From Clostridia bacterium (GTDB taxonomy: Bacteria > Bacillota > Clostridia > UMGS1840 > HGM11507): a stretch of DNA of 64,000 bases. The position numbers were made by a program, and so were the translations under genes. The stretch's first letter is position 1, and each line of letters begins with the position of its first letter. Where the stretch lies: the NCBI GenBank assembly GCA_017414505.1, contig JAFQLQ010000003.1, positions 23,994 to 87,993 on the forward strand, given 5' to 3'. The notes under the pieces were generated by a model. It had not been told where the DNA came from. It made no database searches and saw nothing but the letters and a program-made list of their open reading frames with translations. This document shows positions 5,811 through 40,563 of this stretch, in pieces.

Positions 5811-7614
5811 CAAACTGTGAATTGTAAAGTGTACTGTAAAATCCGCCTTTTTTCATAAGCTCATCATGATTTCCGGATTCGGTTATTTTACCGTTTTGGA
5901 GAACAATAATTTTATCTGCATTTTGTATTGTGGACAATCTGTGTGCAATAATAAAACAGGTTCTGCCCTTCATAAGCTCGTTCATCGCTTCCTGAATTTT
6001 TATTTCTGTTCTTGAATCTACATTGGATGTTGCTTCGTCAAGAATAAGTATCTGTGAATTGGAAATCATTGCTCTTGCAATTGTTATAAGCTGTTTCTGA
6101 CCTTTTGAAATGTTAATCCCGTCATCGGTTAGTATGGTGTTATATCCGTCGGGCAGGCTTTCAATATAACTGTCAATTTTAGCAGCTTTTGCCGCCGCCT
6201 TTACTTCTTCAAAGGTTGCATTTTCTCTTCCGTATGCAATGTTATCATAAATAGTTCCGCAAAAAAGCCATGTATCCTGTAAAACCATCGTGTAGGTCTT
6301 GCGAAGAGATTTTCTTGTAATATTTCTTATATCGTTGCCGTCTAATGTAACCGAACCGTCTGAAACATCATAAAAACGCATAAGAAGATTGATTATTGTT
6401 GTTTTTCCGGCTCCGGTAGGTCCTACAATTGCTATGGTTTTTCCGGGTGAGGCAGTAAGTGAAATTCCGTGAAGAATGGTTTTATCCGGAGAGTATCCGA
6501 AAACAACGTTATTAAAATCAACTTTTCCATCTGTTTTTTCAAGCTTTAATGCACCAAAAGAATCCTCTGTTTCCGGCTCTTCATCAAGAACCTTGAAAAT
6601 TCTTTCAGCAGCAGAAAGAGCTGATTGAAATTCTGTAATTATGTTTGCAAATTCGTTTATCGGTCCTGCAAATTTTCTTGAATACTGAACAAACTGTGCC
6701 ACACCGCCAAGTGTTATGAAAAACAGTGTACCCTGAGGAGTTGTACCGTTTTGAGAATACATATAAAGTATTCCGCCTAAAATCATAATAAGCGAAATGG
6801 AAAGATTGTTTATAAAGCCAACAGATGGGCCCATTGTGCCTCCGTAATAGTCAGCCTCATAATAAGCATTCATAGAGTCGTTGTTTCGTTTGTTAAAACG
6901 ATTTCCTATTTCTTCTTCCCGGGAATATGCCTGAATTGTACGAAGTCCGGATAACATTTCCTCAGCGTAACCGTTGAGCTCGCCTAATTTTCTTGAACGC
7001 TTCCTAAAAAGCGGACGAACTTTTTTTGAACGGTATCTTGTAAAAATAATTGCAGTTGGAACCGTTATTACAAAAACAAGAATAAGCGGCTTTGAAATAT
7101 TCCACATAAATACCAGTGAACCCACAACTGTGTAAATACTGGTCATCACCTGAACAAGGTCATGGGAGAGTGTGCTGTTCAAAGTATCAATATCGTAAGA
7201 AATTCTGCTTATTATATCTCCTGTAGGATGGGTATCAAAATATCCTACAGGTAAGGAAAGAAGCTTTTCGAAAAGCTGACAACGCATAGTATATACAATT
7301 TTCTGACTTATGTAAATCATAAGAACTGCCAGAAGATATGATAAAACCGCTGAAAAAATATAGCATATAAGCATCAGTATAATATTTTTCTGAACAGCAG
7401 TAAAATCAACTCCGCTGATATTTGCTATGGCATCTATCGCTTCTCCGGAATATTTCGGTCCCAAAAGAGAAAGCTGGTTGGAAAACAATGTCATAACTAT
7501 TGACGGAATAAAAAGATACCAGTATTTCATTACATAGCCTAATATTCTTATAAGTATATTGCGGGCGGTTTTTCTGTCGATTTTTTTCTTTTCAGGTCTA
7601 TTCAACAAAAGCAC
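5806..7614 (-). CDS. ABC exporter permease/ATPase half-transporter (canonical catalytic Walker B, deviant signature)
   Basis: N-terminal 6-TM domain plus an NBD. Walker A GPTGAGKTT, Walker B ILILDEATS, signature ISKGQKQ in place of LSGGQ. Confidence 0.9.
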   Translation of the reverse strand: MLLLNRPEKKKIDRKTARNILIRILGYVMKYWYLFIPSIVMTLFSNQLSLLGPKYSGEAIDAIANISGVDFTAVQKNIILMLICYIFSAVLSYLLAVLMIYISQKIVYTMRCQLFEKLLSLPVGYFDTHPTGDIISRISYDIDTLNSTLSHDLVQVMTSIYTVVGSLVFMWNISKPLILVFVITVPTAIIFTRYRSKKVRPLFRKRSRKLGELNGYAEEMLSGLRTIQAYSREEEIGNRFNKRNNDSMNAYYEADYYGGTMGPSVGFINNLSISLIMILGGILYMYSQNGTTPQGTLFFITLGGVAQFVQYSRKFAGPINEFANIITEFQSALSAAERIFKVLDEEPETEDSFGALKLEKTDGKVDFNNVVFGYSPDKTILHGISLTASPGKTIAIVGPTGAGKTTIINLLMRFYDVSDGSVTLDGNDIRNITRKSLRKTYTMVLQDTWLFCGTIYDNIAYGRENATFEEVKAAAKAAKIDSYIESLPDGYNTILTDDGINISKGQKQLITIARAMISNSQILILDEATSNVDSRTEIKIQEAMNELMKGRTCFIIAHRLSTIQNADKIIVLQNGKITESGNHDELMKKGGFYSTLYNSQFE

Positions 7615-27405: not shown

Positions 27406-27948
27406 TTAAATGTTAATTTTAAACGGATTTGTGCGTTTCATTTCTTCCAGCATTTTTGTTGTAGGAGTAAAAATAAGAATCATTCGCTGACCGTCTTTGT
27501 TATTGAAAACTGCATAATAATCCTTAAAATGTGTTGTAGCTCCTGCAGCGTTTAAGCGAACTCTGATGTTGGGATCTTTGTAAGCACGTTCAAAATCCGG
27601 GCCTTCTGCAAGCCCCATCTGATCGAAATTGTTTATGGAAACTGTAAGCATTCTTTTTCTGGTACGTCTTGCAACAATTCTGTCAACATCAAGCTCACCG
27701 TTGGTATAAATGTATTCGTATTCAACAGCAACGTAGTTACTAAGCCACCACGCACCTATAAATGCACCTACTGTAAGTGCAAAAGTAAACTGACCTAGAT
27801 ACTGACCAATCTGAGGCGAAGCAAAGGTAATAATCATTAGTAAAAGACTTACCAAAGCTGCCGCAACATATAAGCCTATGATTTTCAAAACACCGATTGC
27901 ATCAAGTTTTTTCTTGACCATATACTCCATATAAACATCGTTATTCAT
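27406..27948 (-). CDS. Conserved hypothetical protein: two TM helices plus a soluble C-terminal domain
   Basis: Hydrophobic segments IIGLYVAAALVSLLLMIITF and FTFALTVGAFIGAWWL, then YIYTNGELDVDRIV. No recognisable catalytic motif. Confidence 0.6.
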   Translation of the reverse strand: MNNDVYMEYMVKKKLDAIGVLKIIGLYVAAALVSLLLMIITFASPQIGQYLGQFTFALTVGAFIGAWWLSNYVAVEYEYIYTNGELDVDRIVARRTRKRMLTVSINNFDQMGLAEGPDFERAYKDPNIRVRLNAAGATTHFKDYYAVFNNKDGQRMILIFTPTTKMLEEMKRTNPFKINI

Positions 27949-30806: not shown

Positions 30807-30952
30807 ACCTCATTTTATATAATACCAAAAAAATATATAAATGTCAATTAAACATTATTTTAAAAAATTGTAAATTTATTAAAAACCTCTTTTCTTTTTT
30901 ATATTTATGGTTTATAATGTAGGTGTAATATAATATTGTGAGGTAGTTTAGC

Positions 30953-31828
30953 TTGTTTGGCTATGTAAATGTTTATAAGGATGAACTGAAAATTAAAGAC
31001 TATAATACTTTCAGAGGATTTTACTGCGGACTTTGTAAAATTTTGGGGAACGAATTTTCACAAAGTGTAAGGATGGGACTTAACTATGATTTTGCATTTC
31101 TTGCACTTGTGCTTTCATCACTTTCAAAAACGCAGGAAATAAAGCAGGAAAAATGTATTATTCATCCCATTAACAAAAGACCTGTTGTAAAAAACGATGA
31201 AATACTTGTTTACAGTGCGTATATGAGTGTTATAACAACATATTTCAAACTGGCGGACGACTGTTCTGATAAAAAGAATTTAAAAAGCCTTATTGCATTA
31301 CTGTTTTACAAAAGGCATCTTAAAAAAGCAAAAAAAAGATATCCCGAGGAGTATAAATGTATTAACGAGCAGTTAAAAAGACTTAAAAATCTTGAAAAAG
31401 CAAATTCCTGCGATACAGACGAAACTGCCGACTGTTTTGCAAAAATTCTTGAAAAGCTTTTTAGTCCGCAAAACCTTGAAACGGATGATATATCAAAAAA
31501 AGCTCTGGCAAATTTTGGATATAATCTCGGAAGATTTATTTATCTTATTGATGCTTATGATGATATAGGTGAGGATATCAAAAACAAAAATTATAACCCA
31601 GTTGTAAATTATTACAGATATAATGGGGAAGATATAAATAATTTTACCGAAAAAATTAAAGATAAGGTGGATTTTGGCTTGATGCTTACTCTGGACAGTG
31701 TTGCAAAAGCCTTTGAACTTATCGAATTCAAAAAAAACAGAGAACTGATTTCAAATATTGTATATTTGGGACTTAGAAATAAAAAAGATTCGGTGCTTAC
31801 TGCCGATAAAGATAAGGAGACAAAATAA
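30953..31828 (+). CDS. DUF5685-like protein of unknown function
   Basis: TTG start 8 nt after GAGGT. The N-terminus MFGYVNVYKDEL...YCGLCK is the pattern I associate with DUF5685. Helical, with two Asp-rich motifs. Confidence 0.7.
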   Translation: MFGYVNVYKDELKIKDYNTFRGFYCGLCKILGNEFSQSVRMGLNYDFAFLALVLSSLSKTQEIKQEKCIIHPINKRPVVKNDEILVYSAYMSVITTYFKLADDCSDKKNLKSLIALLFYKRHLKKAKKRYPEEYKCINEQLKRLKNLEKANSCDTDETADCFAKILEKLFSPQNLETDDISKKALANFGYNLGRFIYLIDAYDDIGEDIKNKNYNPVVNYYRYNGEDINNFTEKIKDKVDFGLMLTLDSVAKAFELIEFKKNRELISNIVYLGLRNKKDSVLTADKDKETK

Positions 31829-32418
31829 TGAACCCATATGAAGTGCTGGGAATCCCGGAAGGTTCCGATCAGGAAACAATAAAAAATGCATACAGAGAGC
31901 TTGCAAAAAAATATCATCCGGATCGTTATGCAGATAATCCGTTAAAGGAACTGGCGGAAGAAAAGCTTAAGGAAATAAATAAGGCTTATGATATGTTAAC
32001 CGGAAAAGCCGGCGGAAATAATTCTGCAAGACAGCAAAATACCTACAGCGGAGGAAACGGCTCTTTTGCTCAGATAAGAGTTATGATTCAGACCGGAAGA
32101 GTTACAGAAGCAGACGCTATGCTTGACGGTATGAGCAGCAGAACTGCAGAGTGGTTTTATTTAAAAGGACTTGTTGCTCTGCACAGAGGCTGGTATGACA
32201 GAGCGCTAAGTTTTCTTAATACAGCCTGCTCAATGGAGCCAAATAATATGGAATACCGTTCAACTCTTAATAATTTAAGAAACAGAACCGCCTCCTACAC
32301 AATGTATGGAAACAATCAGGGCTATAACAACGATTGCGGCGGAGATTGCTGTACAAAATTATGTATTGCAGACTGTTGTTGTGAAATGATGGGCGGTGAC
32401 CTGATATCATGCTGTTAA
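31828..32418 (+). CDS. J-domain protein with a TPR-like middle region and a C-terminal cysteine string
   Basis: J domain with HPD (NPYEVLGI..KKYHPDRY). TAATG overlap with the upstream gene. 9 Cys in the final 28 residues. Confidence 0.85.
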   Translation: MNPYEVLGIPEGSDQETIKNAYRELAKKYHPDRYADNPLKELAEEKLKEINKAYDMLTGKAGGNNSARQQNTYSGGNGSFAQIRVMIQTGRVTEADAMLDGMSSRTAEWFYLKGLVALHRGWYDRALSFLNTACSMEPNNMEYRSTLNNLRNRTASYTMYGNNQGYNNDCGGDCCTKLCIADCCCEMMGGDLISCC

Positions 32419-32903
32419 ACAATCTGAAATTAACCAATGGCGGAATACTTGCGGCTCTTGCACTTATTTCGCTGATGCTTGCATCATTTCTTCAAAATAT
32501 GACTCTGGCATTTTTATTTATTTCGTCTGTTATTATGTATCTGTTACTTATAAGATGCGGAAAGAAAACTTTTTTTCTTTCGTATCTGGCAGTTGCTTTG
32601 CTGGGAATTATTATGGTGGGCGATAAAAAGGTCATAATTTATTATATACTTGGTTTTGGATATTATCCTTATCTGCATGAAGTGTTTTCGAAAAAAAACA
32701 ACATTTTGTCCTATGGAATAAGGGGAATATATTTTGCTGTAATGCTTGTAATACTTTATTTTGTGTTAAAAGCATTTATTCCTGCGGCGCTTGATACAAA
32801 GCTGCCTCTTGGGGCTATGGGCGTTGCTGGAATTGTGGTGCTTTATTTATATGATTATTTTTTATCGTATGCAAAGCCGCATCTTATGAGATTTAAAATG
32901 TAA
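32409..32903 (+). CDS. Polytopic membrane protein, unknown function
   Basis: 10-nt overlap with the J-protein gene. About 5 hydrophobic helices. No recognisable family. Confidence 0.65.
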   Translation: MLLNNLKLTNGGILAALALISLMLASFLQNMTLAFLFISSVIMYLLLIRCGKKTFFLSYLAVALLGIIMVGDKKVIIYYILGFGYYPYLHEVFSKKNNILSYGIRGIYFAVMLVILYFVLKAFIPAALDTKLPLGAMGVAGIVVLYLYDYFLSYAKPHLMRFKM

Positions 32904-32917
32904 AAAGGGTTTTTATT

Positions 32918-35900
32918 ATGAATTTAAAGGTTATATACGGGAGAAAGAAAAGCGGAAAAACAACAGCGTTGTTAAATGAAATGATAAGGAAAGATAAAGT
33001 TCTTTATATTGTTCCCGAGCAGAATGTTTTCAATGCCGAAAAGCTTATTTTATCAGAGCTTGGAGAAGAAAAAGCATTTCTTATGGAAACTTTGAGTTTT
33101 AAAAAGCTTGCTCTGAATGTCCTTAAAAAACGTGATGATTACAGTACAATCAGGTTTATTGATAACGACACTAAAAATCTGCTTTTAAATAAGGTTATAT
33201 CTGAAAGAAGGCAGGAACTTGAAATATTTAAAAACGGTGCTTCAAGACCTGAATTTGCCGAGTCTGTAGCTTCTCAGATAAGCGAATTTAAAAGATATAT
33301 GATTGGAACAGATGCCCTTTTGGAGGCGGCGTCAAATTCCGAGCTTCCGGAGTCTTTACGAAAAAAAATCAGGGATATAAAAACTATTTATGCGGCGTAT
33401 GAATCTGAAATAGAAAATACATTTAAAGACTACGACGACCTGCTTCTTATGGCTGCAAAGGAAATTGCTGAAAATAATTATTTTTGCGGTTCAAATGTGT
33501 TTGTGGATTGTTTTACAGGATTTACCGAGCAGGAGCTTAATATTATAAAAGTTCTTATAAATAATAAATGTAACGTAACCGTTTCTCTGCTTTGCGATAA
33601 AGGGCACAACAGTGCAGGAGATTTGTTTTATACAACGGGAATCACAAAAGACAAGCTGAGAAAAGCGGCTGACGAAACCGGTGCGGAATACAGCGAAGAA
33701 TTCTTTGAAAAAAGTTTTTACAAAAATGAAGAATGCGGTTTCCTTGAAAAGAACTTTTATAATCATACATATCAGTCCTGCAATAAAAAAGCCGAAAGCT
33801 TAAAAATATATTCGTTGAAAAACAGCTACGAAGAATGTGAAAATGCCATCAACGAAATGATTCGTATAATAGGCGAGGATAATGCAAAATTCGGTGATTT
33901 TGTTTTTGTTCTTTGTTCTATGGATGATTATAAAAAAGACGTGGAAACCTTATTTGCCGAATACGGAATTTCCTATTATATAGACGAAAAAACTTCTGTT
34001 GCAGATTTATCTGCGGCAGGTTTTGTTACGCTTGTTTCAGATATTGCACAGTATCCCGGAAACCGTGAATATCTGATGTCTTATCTTAAATCCGGATATG
34101 TTATTAAAAATTTCAGAGATGAAGTTTTTAATTTTGAAAATTTTGTTCGTGAAGCCGGCGTAAAAAATTATGAGCTTTTTTCCGGAAAAAGCATAGAGGA
34201 AACACTTGAAACAAAATCAAAATACGGATTTTTGCCATCATCGGAAAATGCAGTAAAATTTGTGTACGAAAAAGCCATTTTACCGCTTAAAATTTTTATT
34301 TCCCGTGTAAAAGGCAAACACACAGCTGAAGAATTCGGTGAATTTATAATAGATTTTCTTGAAAATATCTGCTATAAGGAAACAATTGAAGAATACATAA
34401 ATGAATTTAACCGTAATGGTGATCTTATTAAAGGAATGCAGTTTGCTCAGGTTTATAATACAGTTACCGAAGCAATACGAAGAACAAGCCTTATTATGGA
34501 CAATAAGGTAATTGATTTCAAAACCTTTGCAGATTTACTTAAAATGGCATATGAAAGTCACTCTATATCCACCATTCCGTTATCTATGGACAGTGTTCAT
34601 GTTACGGGGATGAACGGAACAGGAAACGGAAAATTCAAATATATGTTTGTTCTTGGAATGACAGAAGGGGTTATTCCCGGGGGATTTGCATCGGAATCTC
34701 TTATAAATGAAATAGACAGAGCTTATCTTAACGAAATAGGAATAGGTCTTTCTATGAGTAAACAATTAAAACTTTCAGAAGAACAGCTTCTTATTTATAA
34801 TGCAGTTTGTTCGGATGTAGATGAGCTTGTTATGTCTTATCCGAAAACCAATTTTTCTCTTGATAAATTAAGCCCCTCGGAGGTTTTGGTATCAATCAGA
34901 AATATTTTCCCCGAAAACCCGGTTTTTACGGGAAAATCCGATAATAAAGTAACCTCTAAAAGACTTCTTTTTGAACGTGTGATAAACGATATAAAAAAGG
35001 GTTATGATGACGAAGAAACAGTAAATACCTTTAAATATTTTCTTAATGATGATGAATATAAATATACTGCTCAAAGGGTTTATAAAAATATTATTTTCAA
35101 AACATCAAAGCAGAATATAAAGATAGATAAAAATCTTGTTTCAAAGCGCTTTGACAATGAACTTGAAACTGCCGTTACAGGATTGGAAAAATACCGTTCC
35201 TGCGCATTTTCCTACTACTTAAGATATGTTTTAAAATGCAGAGAAAAAAAGGAATTTACAGTTAATGTGGCAGATGCGGGAAGTTTAAGCCATAAGATTA
35301 TAGAAGATTTTTCAAAAATGATAGCAGAAAAAAATATTTCATTTGAAGAGCTTACTGATACATTTATAGAAGAAAATATAGAAAACATTGCAGAAGAAGT
35401 TGTTCAGAATGAATACGGCGGACTTTTTGTATCCGATGCAAAAAGCAAATATCTCGTTAAAAAGCTTAAACGAATATCAAGAAGAGTTATAAATCTTATA
35501 AAACTTCACTTTCAGAAGGGGAATTTTGTACCTCTTGGATACGAAATGTATTTTTCAGAAAAAAACGGTATGCTTGATGGAATACGTTTTGATCTGGAGG
35601 ACGACAGACGTGTTCTTTTAAAAGGTGTTATTGACAGAGTTGATAAGTTAACTTCAGATAATACGGATTATATTCGTGTTGTTGATTACAAGTCTTCGCA
35701 GAAATCCATAGATTTAAGTGATGTGTATAACGGAATAAATTTACAGCTTTCCTTTTATCTGCTTGTTATGCTTAAACAGAAGATATTTGAAAATGTAAAA
35801 CCCGGTGCAATGCTTTATCTTACGCTTGATGAACCGCTTATTAAGCTTAATAATCCAGCCGGGGATGACAAAGTGGAATTTGAAATAAAAAAAGAGCTTA

Positions 35901-39822: not shown

Positions 39823-40563
39823 ATGGAAGAAAAATTTGAAGAAAAAAAAGAAGAAGTTATTTCTGCAAATGAAACTGCTTCAAAAAAGAAAAAACATAAA
39901 AAACACGGTAAATTTTTTAATAAAAAAATTGCAAAATCCTCTGTGATATTGGGAACTGCATTTTGTATATCCTTTTTGGCAACAGCAAATTTTTATATGA
40001 AATCAAAAAATCTTGTGTTTGCGGATGAACTGCAAAAGGTTGATGAACTGGTAAAAACAGTTAACGAACAGAAAAAGGATATTGCAACTCTGGAAAAAGA
40101 CGTGGATAAGTACAAAAAACTTTATGAAGAATATAAAGAAGCTTATGAAGATGAAAAGAAAAACGCAAAAAAAACAACTGTAAAAAGCACTGCAAAAACT
40201 AATTCTTCAACTACAAAGAAATCATCTTCTGCAGCTCCTAAAAATACTGCTCCAAAAACAACAGAAAAAAATAATACTGCGGATAAAAAAGAAGAAACAG
40301 ATACCAAGAATGAAGCAGAAAACACAAAGAAAGAAACTGCATCATCTGAAATATCCGTTGAAAATACTCCCTCGGTATCAAATGATAATGTTCCGTCACA
40401 AAATCCGGGTGTAGTGGTTAACGAGCCTTCTGCAGTGCCCGATTCAACCCCCAACACTCCTTCTTCGGGAAATTCTGATACCGGTATTCCTGCTGTTCAG
40501 CCATCTCAGCCTGCAAGTCCTGCAGCGCCGCAGATAAATGTCGGAGGCACAAATGCACAATAA
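39823..40563 (+). CDS. Membrane-anchored protein with a coiled-coil segment and a low-complexity S/T/P/N/K-rich tail
   Basis: Lys-rich N-terminus, one TM (SSVILGTAFCISFLATANFYM), a coiled-coil-like KDIATLEKDVDKYKKLYEEYKEAYE, then a compositionally biased tail. Confidence 0.55.
   Translation: MEEKFEEKKEEVISANETASKKKKHKKHGKFFNKKIAKSSVILGTAFCISFLATANFYMKSKNLVFADELQKVDELVKTVNEQKKDIATLEKDVDKYKKLYEEYKEAYEDEKKNAKKTTVKSTAKTNSSTTKKSSSAAPKNTAPKTTEKNNTADKKEETDTKNEAENTKKETASSEISVENTPSVSNDNVPSQNPGVVVNEPSAVPDSTPNTPSSGNSDTGIPAVQPSQPASPAAPQINVGGTNAQ

Follow-up and report, generated by a model that had tools for sequence, protein, structure and literature searches.

A stretch of 64,000 nucleotides (nt) from a Clostridia bacterium (contig JAFQLQ010000003.1, positions 23,994 to 87,993 of the forward strand), hereafter the window, contains a compact module of three genes. 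The open reading frames (ORFs) encode a DUF5685 protein (ORF1), a J-domain protein that ends in a cysteine string (ORF2, the J/Cys protein), and a small membrane protein (ORF3). The three-gene system is real and widespread, and it is without an assigned function. Judging from its structural model, DUF5685 probably adopts the class I isoprenoid-synthase fold and acts as an enzyme; its Asp-rich motifs are predicted to bind metal. This assignment puts an enzyme and its Cys-rich partner, in place of chaperone recruitment, at the centre of the system. The genes of the module and the region in front of them are:

30807-30952, intergenic region 5′ of ORF1; 146 nt, AT-rich (17.8% GC), carries the module's own promoter
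30940-30943, + strand, ribosome-binding site of ORF1 (GAGG)
30953-31828, + strand, DUF5685 gene (ORF1); 291 amino acids (aa), TTG start, GAGG 9 nt 5′ of the start
31828-32418, + strand, J/Cys gene (ORF2); 196 aa, with J domain, linker, TPR-like unit, low-complexity linker, and C-terminal cysteine string
32409-32903, + strand, membrane-protein gene (ORF3); 164 aa, six predicted helices

The three overlapping ORFs, the AT-rich region in front of them, and the spacing to the next gene are all as the initial annotation had described them. ORF1 and ORF2 share a stop/start overlap (TAATG, 31826-31830), ORF2 and ORF3 overlap by 10 nt (ATGCTGTTAA, 32409-32418), and ORF3 ends 14 nt (32904-32917) before the start of addB at 32918. 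The TTG start of ORF1 is confirmed by its match to the MFGYV N-terminus conserved in 121 homologous loci. DUF5685 start codons in homologous loci are ATG (79), TTG (26), and GTG (14).

Conservation and Linkage of the Three Genes

An alignment of DUF5685 was scanned against one genome per species and matched at least 596 species. The best 80 loci (L001-L080) were analysed. They cover Oscillospirales-type metagenome-assembled genomes (MAGs), Petroclostridium, Tissierellales, Caloranaerobacter, Lachnospiraceae (including Blautia), Clostridium sensu stricto, Paraclostridium, Christensenellales, and Desulfitobacteriaceae. In 76 of the 80 genomes, DUF5685 is followed directly by the J/Cys gene; three of the four remaining loci are contig ends and the fourth is L037, described below. 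We also sampled in the reverse direction, by searching metagenome contigs with an alignment of the J/Cys protein, which gave 61 loci with at least 900 nt upstream and 60 with room downstream. DUF5685 is directly 5′ of the J/Cys gene in 59/61 of these loci. The linkage of DUF5685 with a J-domain gene, for which the initial annotation had suggested a co-occurrence and neighbourhood analysis, is thus conserved in both sampling directions. Both the stop of DUF5685 and the start of the J/Cys gene could be located in 79 loci. The two overlap in 54 of these (with an overlap of the ATGA type in 24), and the description of the genes as a translationally coupled three-gene unit holds.

The membrane gene was found in 59/80 genomes by clustering and in 51 of the 60 metagenome loci with room downstream. 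The copy in Lachnospiraceae is diverged, and phmmer missed it. Nearly all of 160 independent loci show the order DUF5685, J/Cys protein, membrane protein. When the ORFs from the 80 loci were clustered all against all, no further conserved neighbour came up beyond the three genes; an ABC ATPase gene is near the module in 14 of these loci.

Promoters were scanned in the 150 nt 5′ of the DUF5685 starts in loci L001-L160, with shuffled sequences as a control, and 115 regions could be scored. Sigma-A-type promoters (TTGAnA-17-TATAAT, often TG-extended) are enriched, with matches of ≥10/12 in 38% of the regions vs. 5% of the shuffles. The best sigma-A-like match in the window's own intergenic region (TTTTCT-17-TATAAT, ~63 nt 5′ of the ORF1 start) is weaker than the type enriched in the relatives. 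We found no evidence for sporulation-specific expression in the upstream regions, which carry sigma-A-type promoters, and no systematic search for sporulation-type promoters was made. Based on the two-way linkage, the absence of any other conserved neighbour, and the enrichment of sigma-A-type promoters, the module is an autonomous, housekeeping-type, translationally coupled operon that is widespread in Clostridia.

The initial annotation had drawn attention to the position of the genes directly upstream of addBA. For the module, this position is without meaning. Only 3/80 genomes (L002, L042, and L054) have AddB after the module, so its place beside addBA is incidental, and an association with addBA was rejected. 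Since the 14 nt gap contains no terminator-like structure, the module and addBA may share a transcript in this organism. Two terminator-like matches, at 32585 and 32819, both fall within ORF3, and their number is not above chance expectation.

A few loci deserve separate mention. L037 (6001-8400) is the sole complete locus without a J/Cys gene after DUF5685, and a gene for an Ldh/Mdh-like dehydrogenase is found there instead. DUF5685 has an apparent CTG start at this locus, and its partner may be encoded elsewhere in that genome. At L054 (6001-6862), DUF5685 is broken up, with one ORF at 6001-6675 and a second, overlapping one at 6581-6862, possibly through a frameshift, pseudogene formation, or an assembly error. 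An IspA-like polyprenyl diphosphate synthase with both PROSITE motifs is located 0.7 kb 5′ of DUF5685 at L024 (4421-5311); as a single case among 160 loci, it is not a conserved association. In 11 of the loci L001-L080 (e.g., L013:4684-5127), a small membrane-protein gene (MAKNMTQDEYKKIMERKTPASKLF...) lies ~0.6 kb 5′ of DUF5685 on the opposite strand. We take this gene to be spoVAC-like; if so, it would connect the module loosely with sporulation genes, and only in certain lineages.

The DUF5685 family comprises 5,804 clusters at 50% identity (E up to 1e−3) and spans Clostridia, including gut commensals and relatives of pathogens. The searchable literature yielded one mention of DUF5685, in a list of domains in hypothetical proteins of Clostridioides difficile, and no paper on bacterial cysteine-string J proteins. 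A functional description of the gene set, of which the initial annotation knew none, was likewise not found there. New here are the enzyme-fold assignment, the two-way linkage, and the finding that the Cys string rather than the J domain is the invariant feature of the partner.

Fold and Motifs of DUF5685

ORF1 matches Pfam DUF5685 (PF18937) with 303.7 bits (gathering score 26.7; E = 1.6e−90), residues 1-278 aligning with positions 1-270 of the 272 in the profile. The label DUF5685-like, which ORF1 had received at first, named the right family and undersold the match: with its full-length alignment, ORF1 is a true member. ORF1 had also been called a helical protein with no known function. Its AlphaFold2 model (predicted local distance difference test, pLDDT, 91.8; predicted template modelling score, pTM, 0.89) points instead to an enzyme. 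When the model was compared with the PDB by Foldseek, all of the top 50 matches were members of the class I isoprenoid-synthase superfamily (IPR008949), with probabilities of 0.92-1.00 (mostly 1.00), template modelling (TM) scores of 0.30-0.63, and e-values of 1e−3 to 4e−2. The matches include octaprenyl, hexaprenyl, and solanesyl diphosphate synthases, farnesyl and geranylgeranyl diphosphate synthases (FPPS and GGPPS), and the non-elongating prenyltransferases MoeN5 and Ord1. Three conserved elements stand out in the protein:

31025-31156, + strand, cysteine triad of C25 and C28 (YCGLC, helix 14-34) and C68 (loop, beta-hairpin 62-80); presumed metal site
31256-31270, + strand, first Asp-rich motif, D102-D103-x-x-D106 (KLxDDxxD); C-terminal end of helix 83-107, predicted helix-D position
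31550-31597, + strand, second acidic motif, D200-A-x-x-D204-x-x-x-D208...Y214-N215 (IDAxxDIxxDxxxxNYN); end of helix 179-203, predicted helix-H position

Class I isoprenoid synthases hold two Mg2+-binding motifs for the prenyl diphosphate on helices D and H, and our comparison is based on this arrangement. The motif on helix H is DDxxD in trans-IDS (trans-isoprenyl diphosphate synthases), NSE/DTE in cyclases, and DxxxD in squalene/phytoene synthases. An alignment of 81 DUF5685 sequences shows no variation at C25, C28, C68, D102, E148, D156, D200, A201, D204, D208, and N215. D106 is missing from a single sequence (80/81), and at position 103 there is D in 63 of the sequences and N in 13. The model has three helices between the two Asp motifs and two long helices after the second. 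The spacing of D200, D204, and D208 (i/i+4/i+8) is like that of NSE/DTE, and the motif is identical to none of the canonical ones.

To this fold the protein adds 80 residues at its N-terminus, which form the helix with C25-x-x-C28 and the beta-hairpin with C68. H71, close to the triad, is found in only 49/81 sequences. The combination of three invariant Cys and a variable H71 fits a metal site with one open or exchangeable ligand, and the triad is presumed to be such a site.

The remote homology searches and structure predictions that had been suggested for these proteins were informative in part. The models of ORF1 and ORF3 (see below) gave fold matches; sequence and profile searches with ORF1 gave none. 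A search of cluster representatives for distant relatives of DUF5685 returned only full-length members among its best 150 matches, with no bridge to known families. Ten unusually long DUF5685 proteins carry DUF5685 alone, without domain fusions. An NCBIfam thioredoxin-like match of ORF1 (E = 0.006; 16 bits vs. a cutoff of 350) was rejected as noise.

The best-supported reading is that ORF1 would be a Mg2+-dependent enzyme that uses a prenyl diphosphate, and ORF2 its obligate protein partner. The predicted fold with its intact, putatively metal-binding motifs, together with this obligate Cys-string J partner, turns an anonymous domain family into a concrete biochemical question.

The J/Cys Partner Protein

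ORF2 is made up of three conserved parts:

31831-32001, + strand, J domain (residues 2-58), with HPD at 31915-31923 (residues 30-32)
32077-32268, + strand, TPR-like helical unit (residues ~84-147), AEWxYLxG...GWYDxA...PxNxEYR
32335-32415, + strand, cysteine string CGGDCCTKLCIADCCCEMMGGDLISCC (residues 170-196), 9 Cys in 27 residues, C-terminus CC

The match to Pfam DnaJ is clear (E = 5.1e−18; 65.4 bits, cutoff 27.8), with HPD between helices II and III, and nine of the ten Cys of ORF2 fall within the last 27 residues. Both the J domain and the Cys string were correctly recognised in the initial annotation. The TPR-like helices that it also listed are detected only as a sub-threshold match to Pfam TPR_2 (E = 7.6e−4; 19.9 bits vs. 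a cutoff of 27). This middle unit is best called a TPR-like helical hairpin, not a Pfam-grade TPR. Its invariant residues are W109, L112, G121, A133, P138, N140, and Y143 (homologue alignment A4).

The tails were analysed in 77 homologues of ORF2. Lineage exceptions aside, all three parts of the protein are conserved across them. The tail consensus is C..C..L.CADCCCECMGGDLI.CC, and 58/77 homologues end in CC. The tails contain no conserved Trp. Other clades have Cys-rich tails with a different spacing and 6-18 Cys. In a clade that includes Ornithomonoglobus-type MAGs, and in several metagenome loci, the Cys-rich tails are quite different (e.g., CPLPCLCLPC... and CCDCSDCCNCCTTWLCCNCMC), and DUF5685 is still there. 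As the tail is kept, its spacing varies, and DUF5685 is present throughout, what co-occurs with DUF5685 is the density of Cys at the C-terminus. One clade with Pro/Cys-rich, non-canonical tails (L009, L015, L017-L019, L021, L024, L025, L028, L029, L034, L041, and L057) lacks the small membrane gene. The next gene there codes for a ~325-aa protein that starts ..EQHITSIGGQAVMEGVMMRGP, and a methyltransferase-like gene comes after it; the two are presumably DUF1385 and PrmC-like.

HPD is present in most of the homologues. In L046 (1372-1977) and L059 (6838-7497) it is replaced by SED/STD in an otherwise conserved J domain, which predicts a loss of DnaK stimulation, and the TPR-like unit and Cys tail are kept. 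The partner in Paraclostridium dentum (L072:6821-7276) has no J domain at all. It retains the TPR-like unit and the canonical tail, which is preceded by a CCCCCCCDDCCCC run, giving 18 Cys in the last 45 residues. The C. difficile relatives may resemble this partner without a J domain. The retention of the string where HPD or the whole J domain is lost counts in favour of the string as the conserved partner feature. By sequence, the invariant features of ORF2 are the TPR-like unit and the Cys string, and the J domain is dispensable in some lineages.

The initial annotation had interpreted the three genes as a membrane-associated module that recruits DnaK. The J domain part of this interpretation stands, in the window and in most relatives. 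DnaK recruitment as the invariant core of the module does not, because the HPD or the J domain itself is lost in the three lineages above, with the TPR-like unit and Cys string persisting. A module whose main task is DnaK recruitment would have DUF5685 as a non-catalytic adaptor or a dedicated client and the Cys string as an interaction or redox-sensing element. The widespread HPD, a membrane protein within the same operon, and the translational coupling, which suggests a stoichiometric complex, speak for such a unit. We nevertheless consider it improbable. Asp-rich motifs that never vary and sit where an enzyme fold has its catalytic residues would not be expected in a passive adaptor, the module survives with a degenerate or missing J domain, and a whole clade keeps the other two genes without the membrane gene.

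The Membrane Protein

ORF3 had no match in Pfam, NCBIfam, or PADLOC. It is a polytopic membrane protein, as first described, and its AlphaFold2 model (pLDDT 84.5) is a bundle of six helices in place of the approximately five transmembrane helices counted earlier. The top six Foldseek matches in the PDB are S-components of energy-coupling factor (ECF) transporters (ThiT, RibU, and chain S of 4hzu). They are weak, with e-values of 0.16-2.5, probabilities of 0.21-0.95, and TM scores of 0.38-0.58. Among 28 members of the ORF3 family, one has a weak match to Pfam ECF-ribofla_trS (5.6e−5) and two match DUF2232. ORF3 is similar to the S-components RibU and ThiT in size (~165-190 aa) and in its six-helix bundle, and differs from them in that the structural matches are below significance, no Pfam match reaches the gathering score, and genes for EcfA/A′/T are absent from 160 module neighbourhoods. 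Shared ECF energising modules can be encoded elsewhere in a genome. The model weakly suggests an S-component-like membrane protein, with a distant resemblance.

Conserved motifs in ORF3 are LPTN, ExG, PxK, FFGxYPxxKxxIE, and YD. Read by the positive-inside rule, FFGxYPxxKxxIE and YD appear to face the cytoplasm, and such a placement suggests protein docking over substrate capture. An identity as a CaaX protease or ICMT was rejected: a single Rce1-like match (E = 0.039) in 1/28 members is noise, and no ICMT or PEMT match was found. When the canonical tail of ORF2 (...CADCCCECMGGDLISCC) is set against the membrane gene in 77 loci, ignoring kinship, both are present in 53 and neither in 13, with the tail alone in 10 and the gene alone in 1. 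The gene is thus usually missing where the tail is non-canonical.

A Possible Role in Protein S-Prenylation

As the best explanation of the module we propose, with considerable reserve, that DUF5685 may S-prenylate the Cys string and so tether the J protein at the membrane, beside ORF3, where it would recruit DnaK. DUF5685 would bind a C10-C20 (or longer) prenyl diphosphate and dock the TPR-like unit of ORF2, and prenyl groups would be moved onto the thiols of the string. A Zn2+ bound at the Cys3 site of DUF5685 would activate the thiolate, in the manner of protein farnesyltransferase. Through its lipidated tail, the J protein could then be held on the cytoplasmic side of the membrane, adjacent or bound to ORF3, and the J domain, where present, would stimulate DnaK on membrane-proximal clients. 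By analogy, the module would be a bacterial counterpart of the eukaryotic cysteine-string protein. That the number and spacing of tail Cys vary (6-18 Cys) as DUF5685 is conserved fits a multiply modified string better than a defined metal cluster. The tight linkage of the two genes, the predicted fold with its invariant catalytic-type residues, the persistence of the string where the J domain is degenerate or missing, the CC ends of most tails, and the joint occurrence of canonical tail and membrane gene also speak for the proposal.

In the main rival reading, the Cys string would be a metal-thiolate tail (Zn, Fe-S, or Cu, metallothionein-like). The J/TPR protein, as a dedicated maturation factor or metallochaperone, would then load the Cys3 site of DUF5685 together with DnaK, as HscB/HscA do for IscU, and DUF5685 would make or modify a membrane isoprenoid. 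The S-component-like ORF3 would import the metal or bind the lipid product. Several features agree with this. The three invariant Cys with their variable fourth ligand could be an open-site [4Fe-4S] or Zn site, acidic residues among the tail Cys (CADCCCECMGGD) suit metal binding, and ORF3 resembles S-components, a type of protein of which some members carry metals. The J domain of ORF2 is weakly similar to HscB in NCBIfam (E ~1e−6), but that similarity, like one to DjlA, is limited to the generic J domain, and for HscB it is far below the family cutoff. Differences in Cys number and spacing between clades would be unusual for a defined cluster site, some lineages do without the J domain, and no ECF energising module or Fe-S assembly gene was found near the module when the 80 loci were clustered. 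We regard the metal tail as rather unlikely. If it were true, the module would still represent a J-protein maturation system of a new kind, dedicated to an isoprenoid enzyme.

A number of observations weigh against S-prenylation by DUF5685. The fold match of ORF1 is moderate (TM scores mostly 0.5-0.63, e-values of 1e−3 to 4e−2), and the register of the Asp motifs was read from the order of the helices, not from a superposition. A Pfam scan of 21 DUF5685 members with E up to 10 gave no isoprenoid family (polyprenyl_synt, SQS_PSY, or terpene synthase), phmmer and profile searches of DUF5685 against the PDB gave nothing relevant, and hhalign of DUF5685 with the IspA-like polyprenyl synthase of L024 gave a probability of 0.3%. 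A polyprenyl diphosphate synthase is near the module in only 1/160 loci. The correlation between the canonical tail and the membrane gene is confounded by phylogeny, and Cys-rich tails are also typical of metal-thiolate binding. Lastly, all characterised enzymes of the ComQ/PalQ/ChrPC kind modify Trp, not Cys (PMC13290415).

If S-prenylation by the module is true, bacteria would have their first endogenous system for it, and protein S-prenylation would no longer be confined to eukaryotes. It would also add a new acceptor specificity to the enzyme class and a convergent counterpart to the neuronal cysteine-string protein, and a lipid switch would serve Clostridia to place DnaK at the membrane. 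Two publications report effects of farnesyltransferase inhibitors on Gram-positive bacteria (PMC8669142, PMC12412981); a connection of the module with these effects is speculative.

Comparison with Known Systems

The trans-IDS-like peptide prenyltransferases ComQ, PalQ, and ChrPC recognise Trp via a conserved Gln before the second Asp motif, and Ord1 is the structural reference for ComQ, PalQ, and the ChrPC P domain (2026 review, PMC13290415). DUF5685 shares with them the isoprenoid-synthase alpha-fold, Ord1 being among its Foldseek matches. As in ComQ/ComX of Bacillus and in PalQ, the enzyme gene directly precedes, often with an overlap, the gene of the (here proposed) substrate, and the target residues (likewise proposed here) are at or near the substrate C-terminus. 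Unlike them, DUF5685 has no detectable sequence similarity to these enzymes and has the additional Cys3 element. The Trp-recognising Gln is missing, D200 being preceded by I/L (consensus IYIIDA). The proposed acceptor is Cys, and the substrate would be a cytosolic J protein of ~200 aa instead of a secreted peptide. Given the missing Gln and the lack of a conserved Trp in the partner, DUF5685 is outside the Trp-prenyltransferase family and may act in a similar way on another acceptor.

The likeness in gene order raises the idea of a system akin to ribosomally synthesised and post-translationally modified peptides (RiPPs), in which the modified Cys-rich C-terminus would be cut off and set free as a ComX-like, lipidated peptide signal. 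A large leader would be formed by the TPR/J part, and ORF3 would serve in export or immunity. The low-complexity linker, which sets the conserved tail apart from the folded part, would suit such a precursor as well. A conserved leader of 170 residues with a functional J domain would be unprecedented, though, and no protease, ABC exporter, or receptor kinase is conserved nearby in the clustering of the 80 loci. Housekeeping-type promoters and the near-universal presence of the module across Clostridia fit a core function over a strain-specific signal. A released signal is therefore very improbable in our estimation.

CSP-alpha/DNAJC5 carries a lipidated Cys string, which anchors the co-chaperone to the membrane so that Hsp70 acts there. 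ORF2 has the same combination of an N-terminal J domain and a dense cysteine string. The two proteins have no homology outside the J domain. The string of CSP-alpha is internal and is S-palmitoylated by DHHC enzymes, whereas that of ORF2 is C-terminal, follows the TPR-like unit, is paired with a predicted isoprenoid-fold enzyme, and is only putatively lipidated.

Protein farnesyltransferase (FTase), geranylgeranyltransferase I (GGTase-I), and Rab geranylgeranyltransferase (RabGGTase) offer a second parallel. The CC at the end of most ORF2 tails recalls the CC/CXC motifs of Rab proteins, and the proposed chemistry would be the same, i.e., alkylation of a thiolate by a prenyl diphosphate at a Zn site with an open ligand position. 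The folds differ: the eukaryotic enzymes have an alpha-alpha barrel beta subunit, and DUF5685 is predicted to be a class I alpha-bundle. The module also lacks a CaaX box and, in our scans of ORF3, any homologue of Rce1 or ICMT.

Among bacterial proteins, E. coli DjlA and HscB are, like ORF2, specialised class C J proteins that would localise DnaK/Hsp70 activity. DjlA is anchored by a transmembrane helix of its own and HscB has a C-terminal helical domain that binds IscU. Both lack a TPR-like unit and a Cys string, and no isoprenoid-fold enzyme accompanies them, as one is predicted to do for ORF2.

Taken to its full extent, the proposal is that DUF5685 could be the first Cys-directed protein prenyltransferase of the isoprenoid-synthase fold, S-prenylating a housekeeping J protein that would be lipid-anchored beside an S-component-like receptor. 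This complete picture is doubtful.

Genes around the Module

The module is flanked by housekeeping genes. Upstream, on the opposite strand, are Tex and a pseudouridine synthase, and downstream are addB, addA, ApbE, and a thioredoxin-reductase-like gene. The intergenic region upstream of ORF1 holds a second promoter on the − strand (30847-30819), an 11/12 match to the sigma-70 type with a TG extension (TTGACA-17-TATTAT), which drives the divergent pseudouridine synthase and Tex genes. PADLOC found no defence-system match for any of the three module proteins, and a role of the module in defence was rejected. A DUF6106 protein is encoded next to Tex (27406-27948, − strand). Between addA and the ApbE gene is an ORF of 246 aa without a Pfam match (39823-40563, + strand). 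Among sequencing runs, the sequence studied here turned up only in DNA runs of gut metagenomes.

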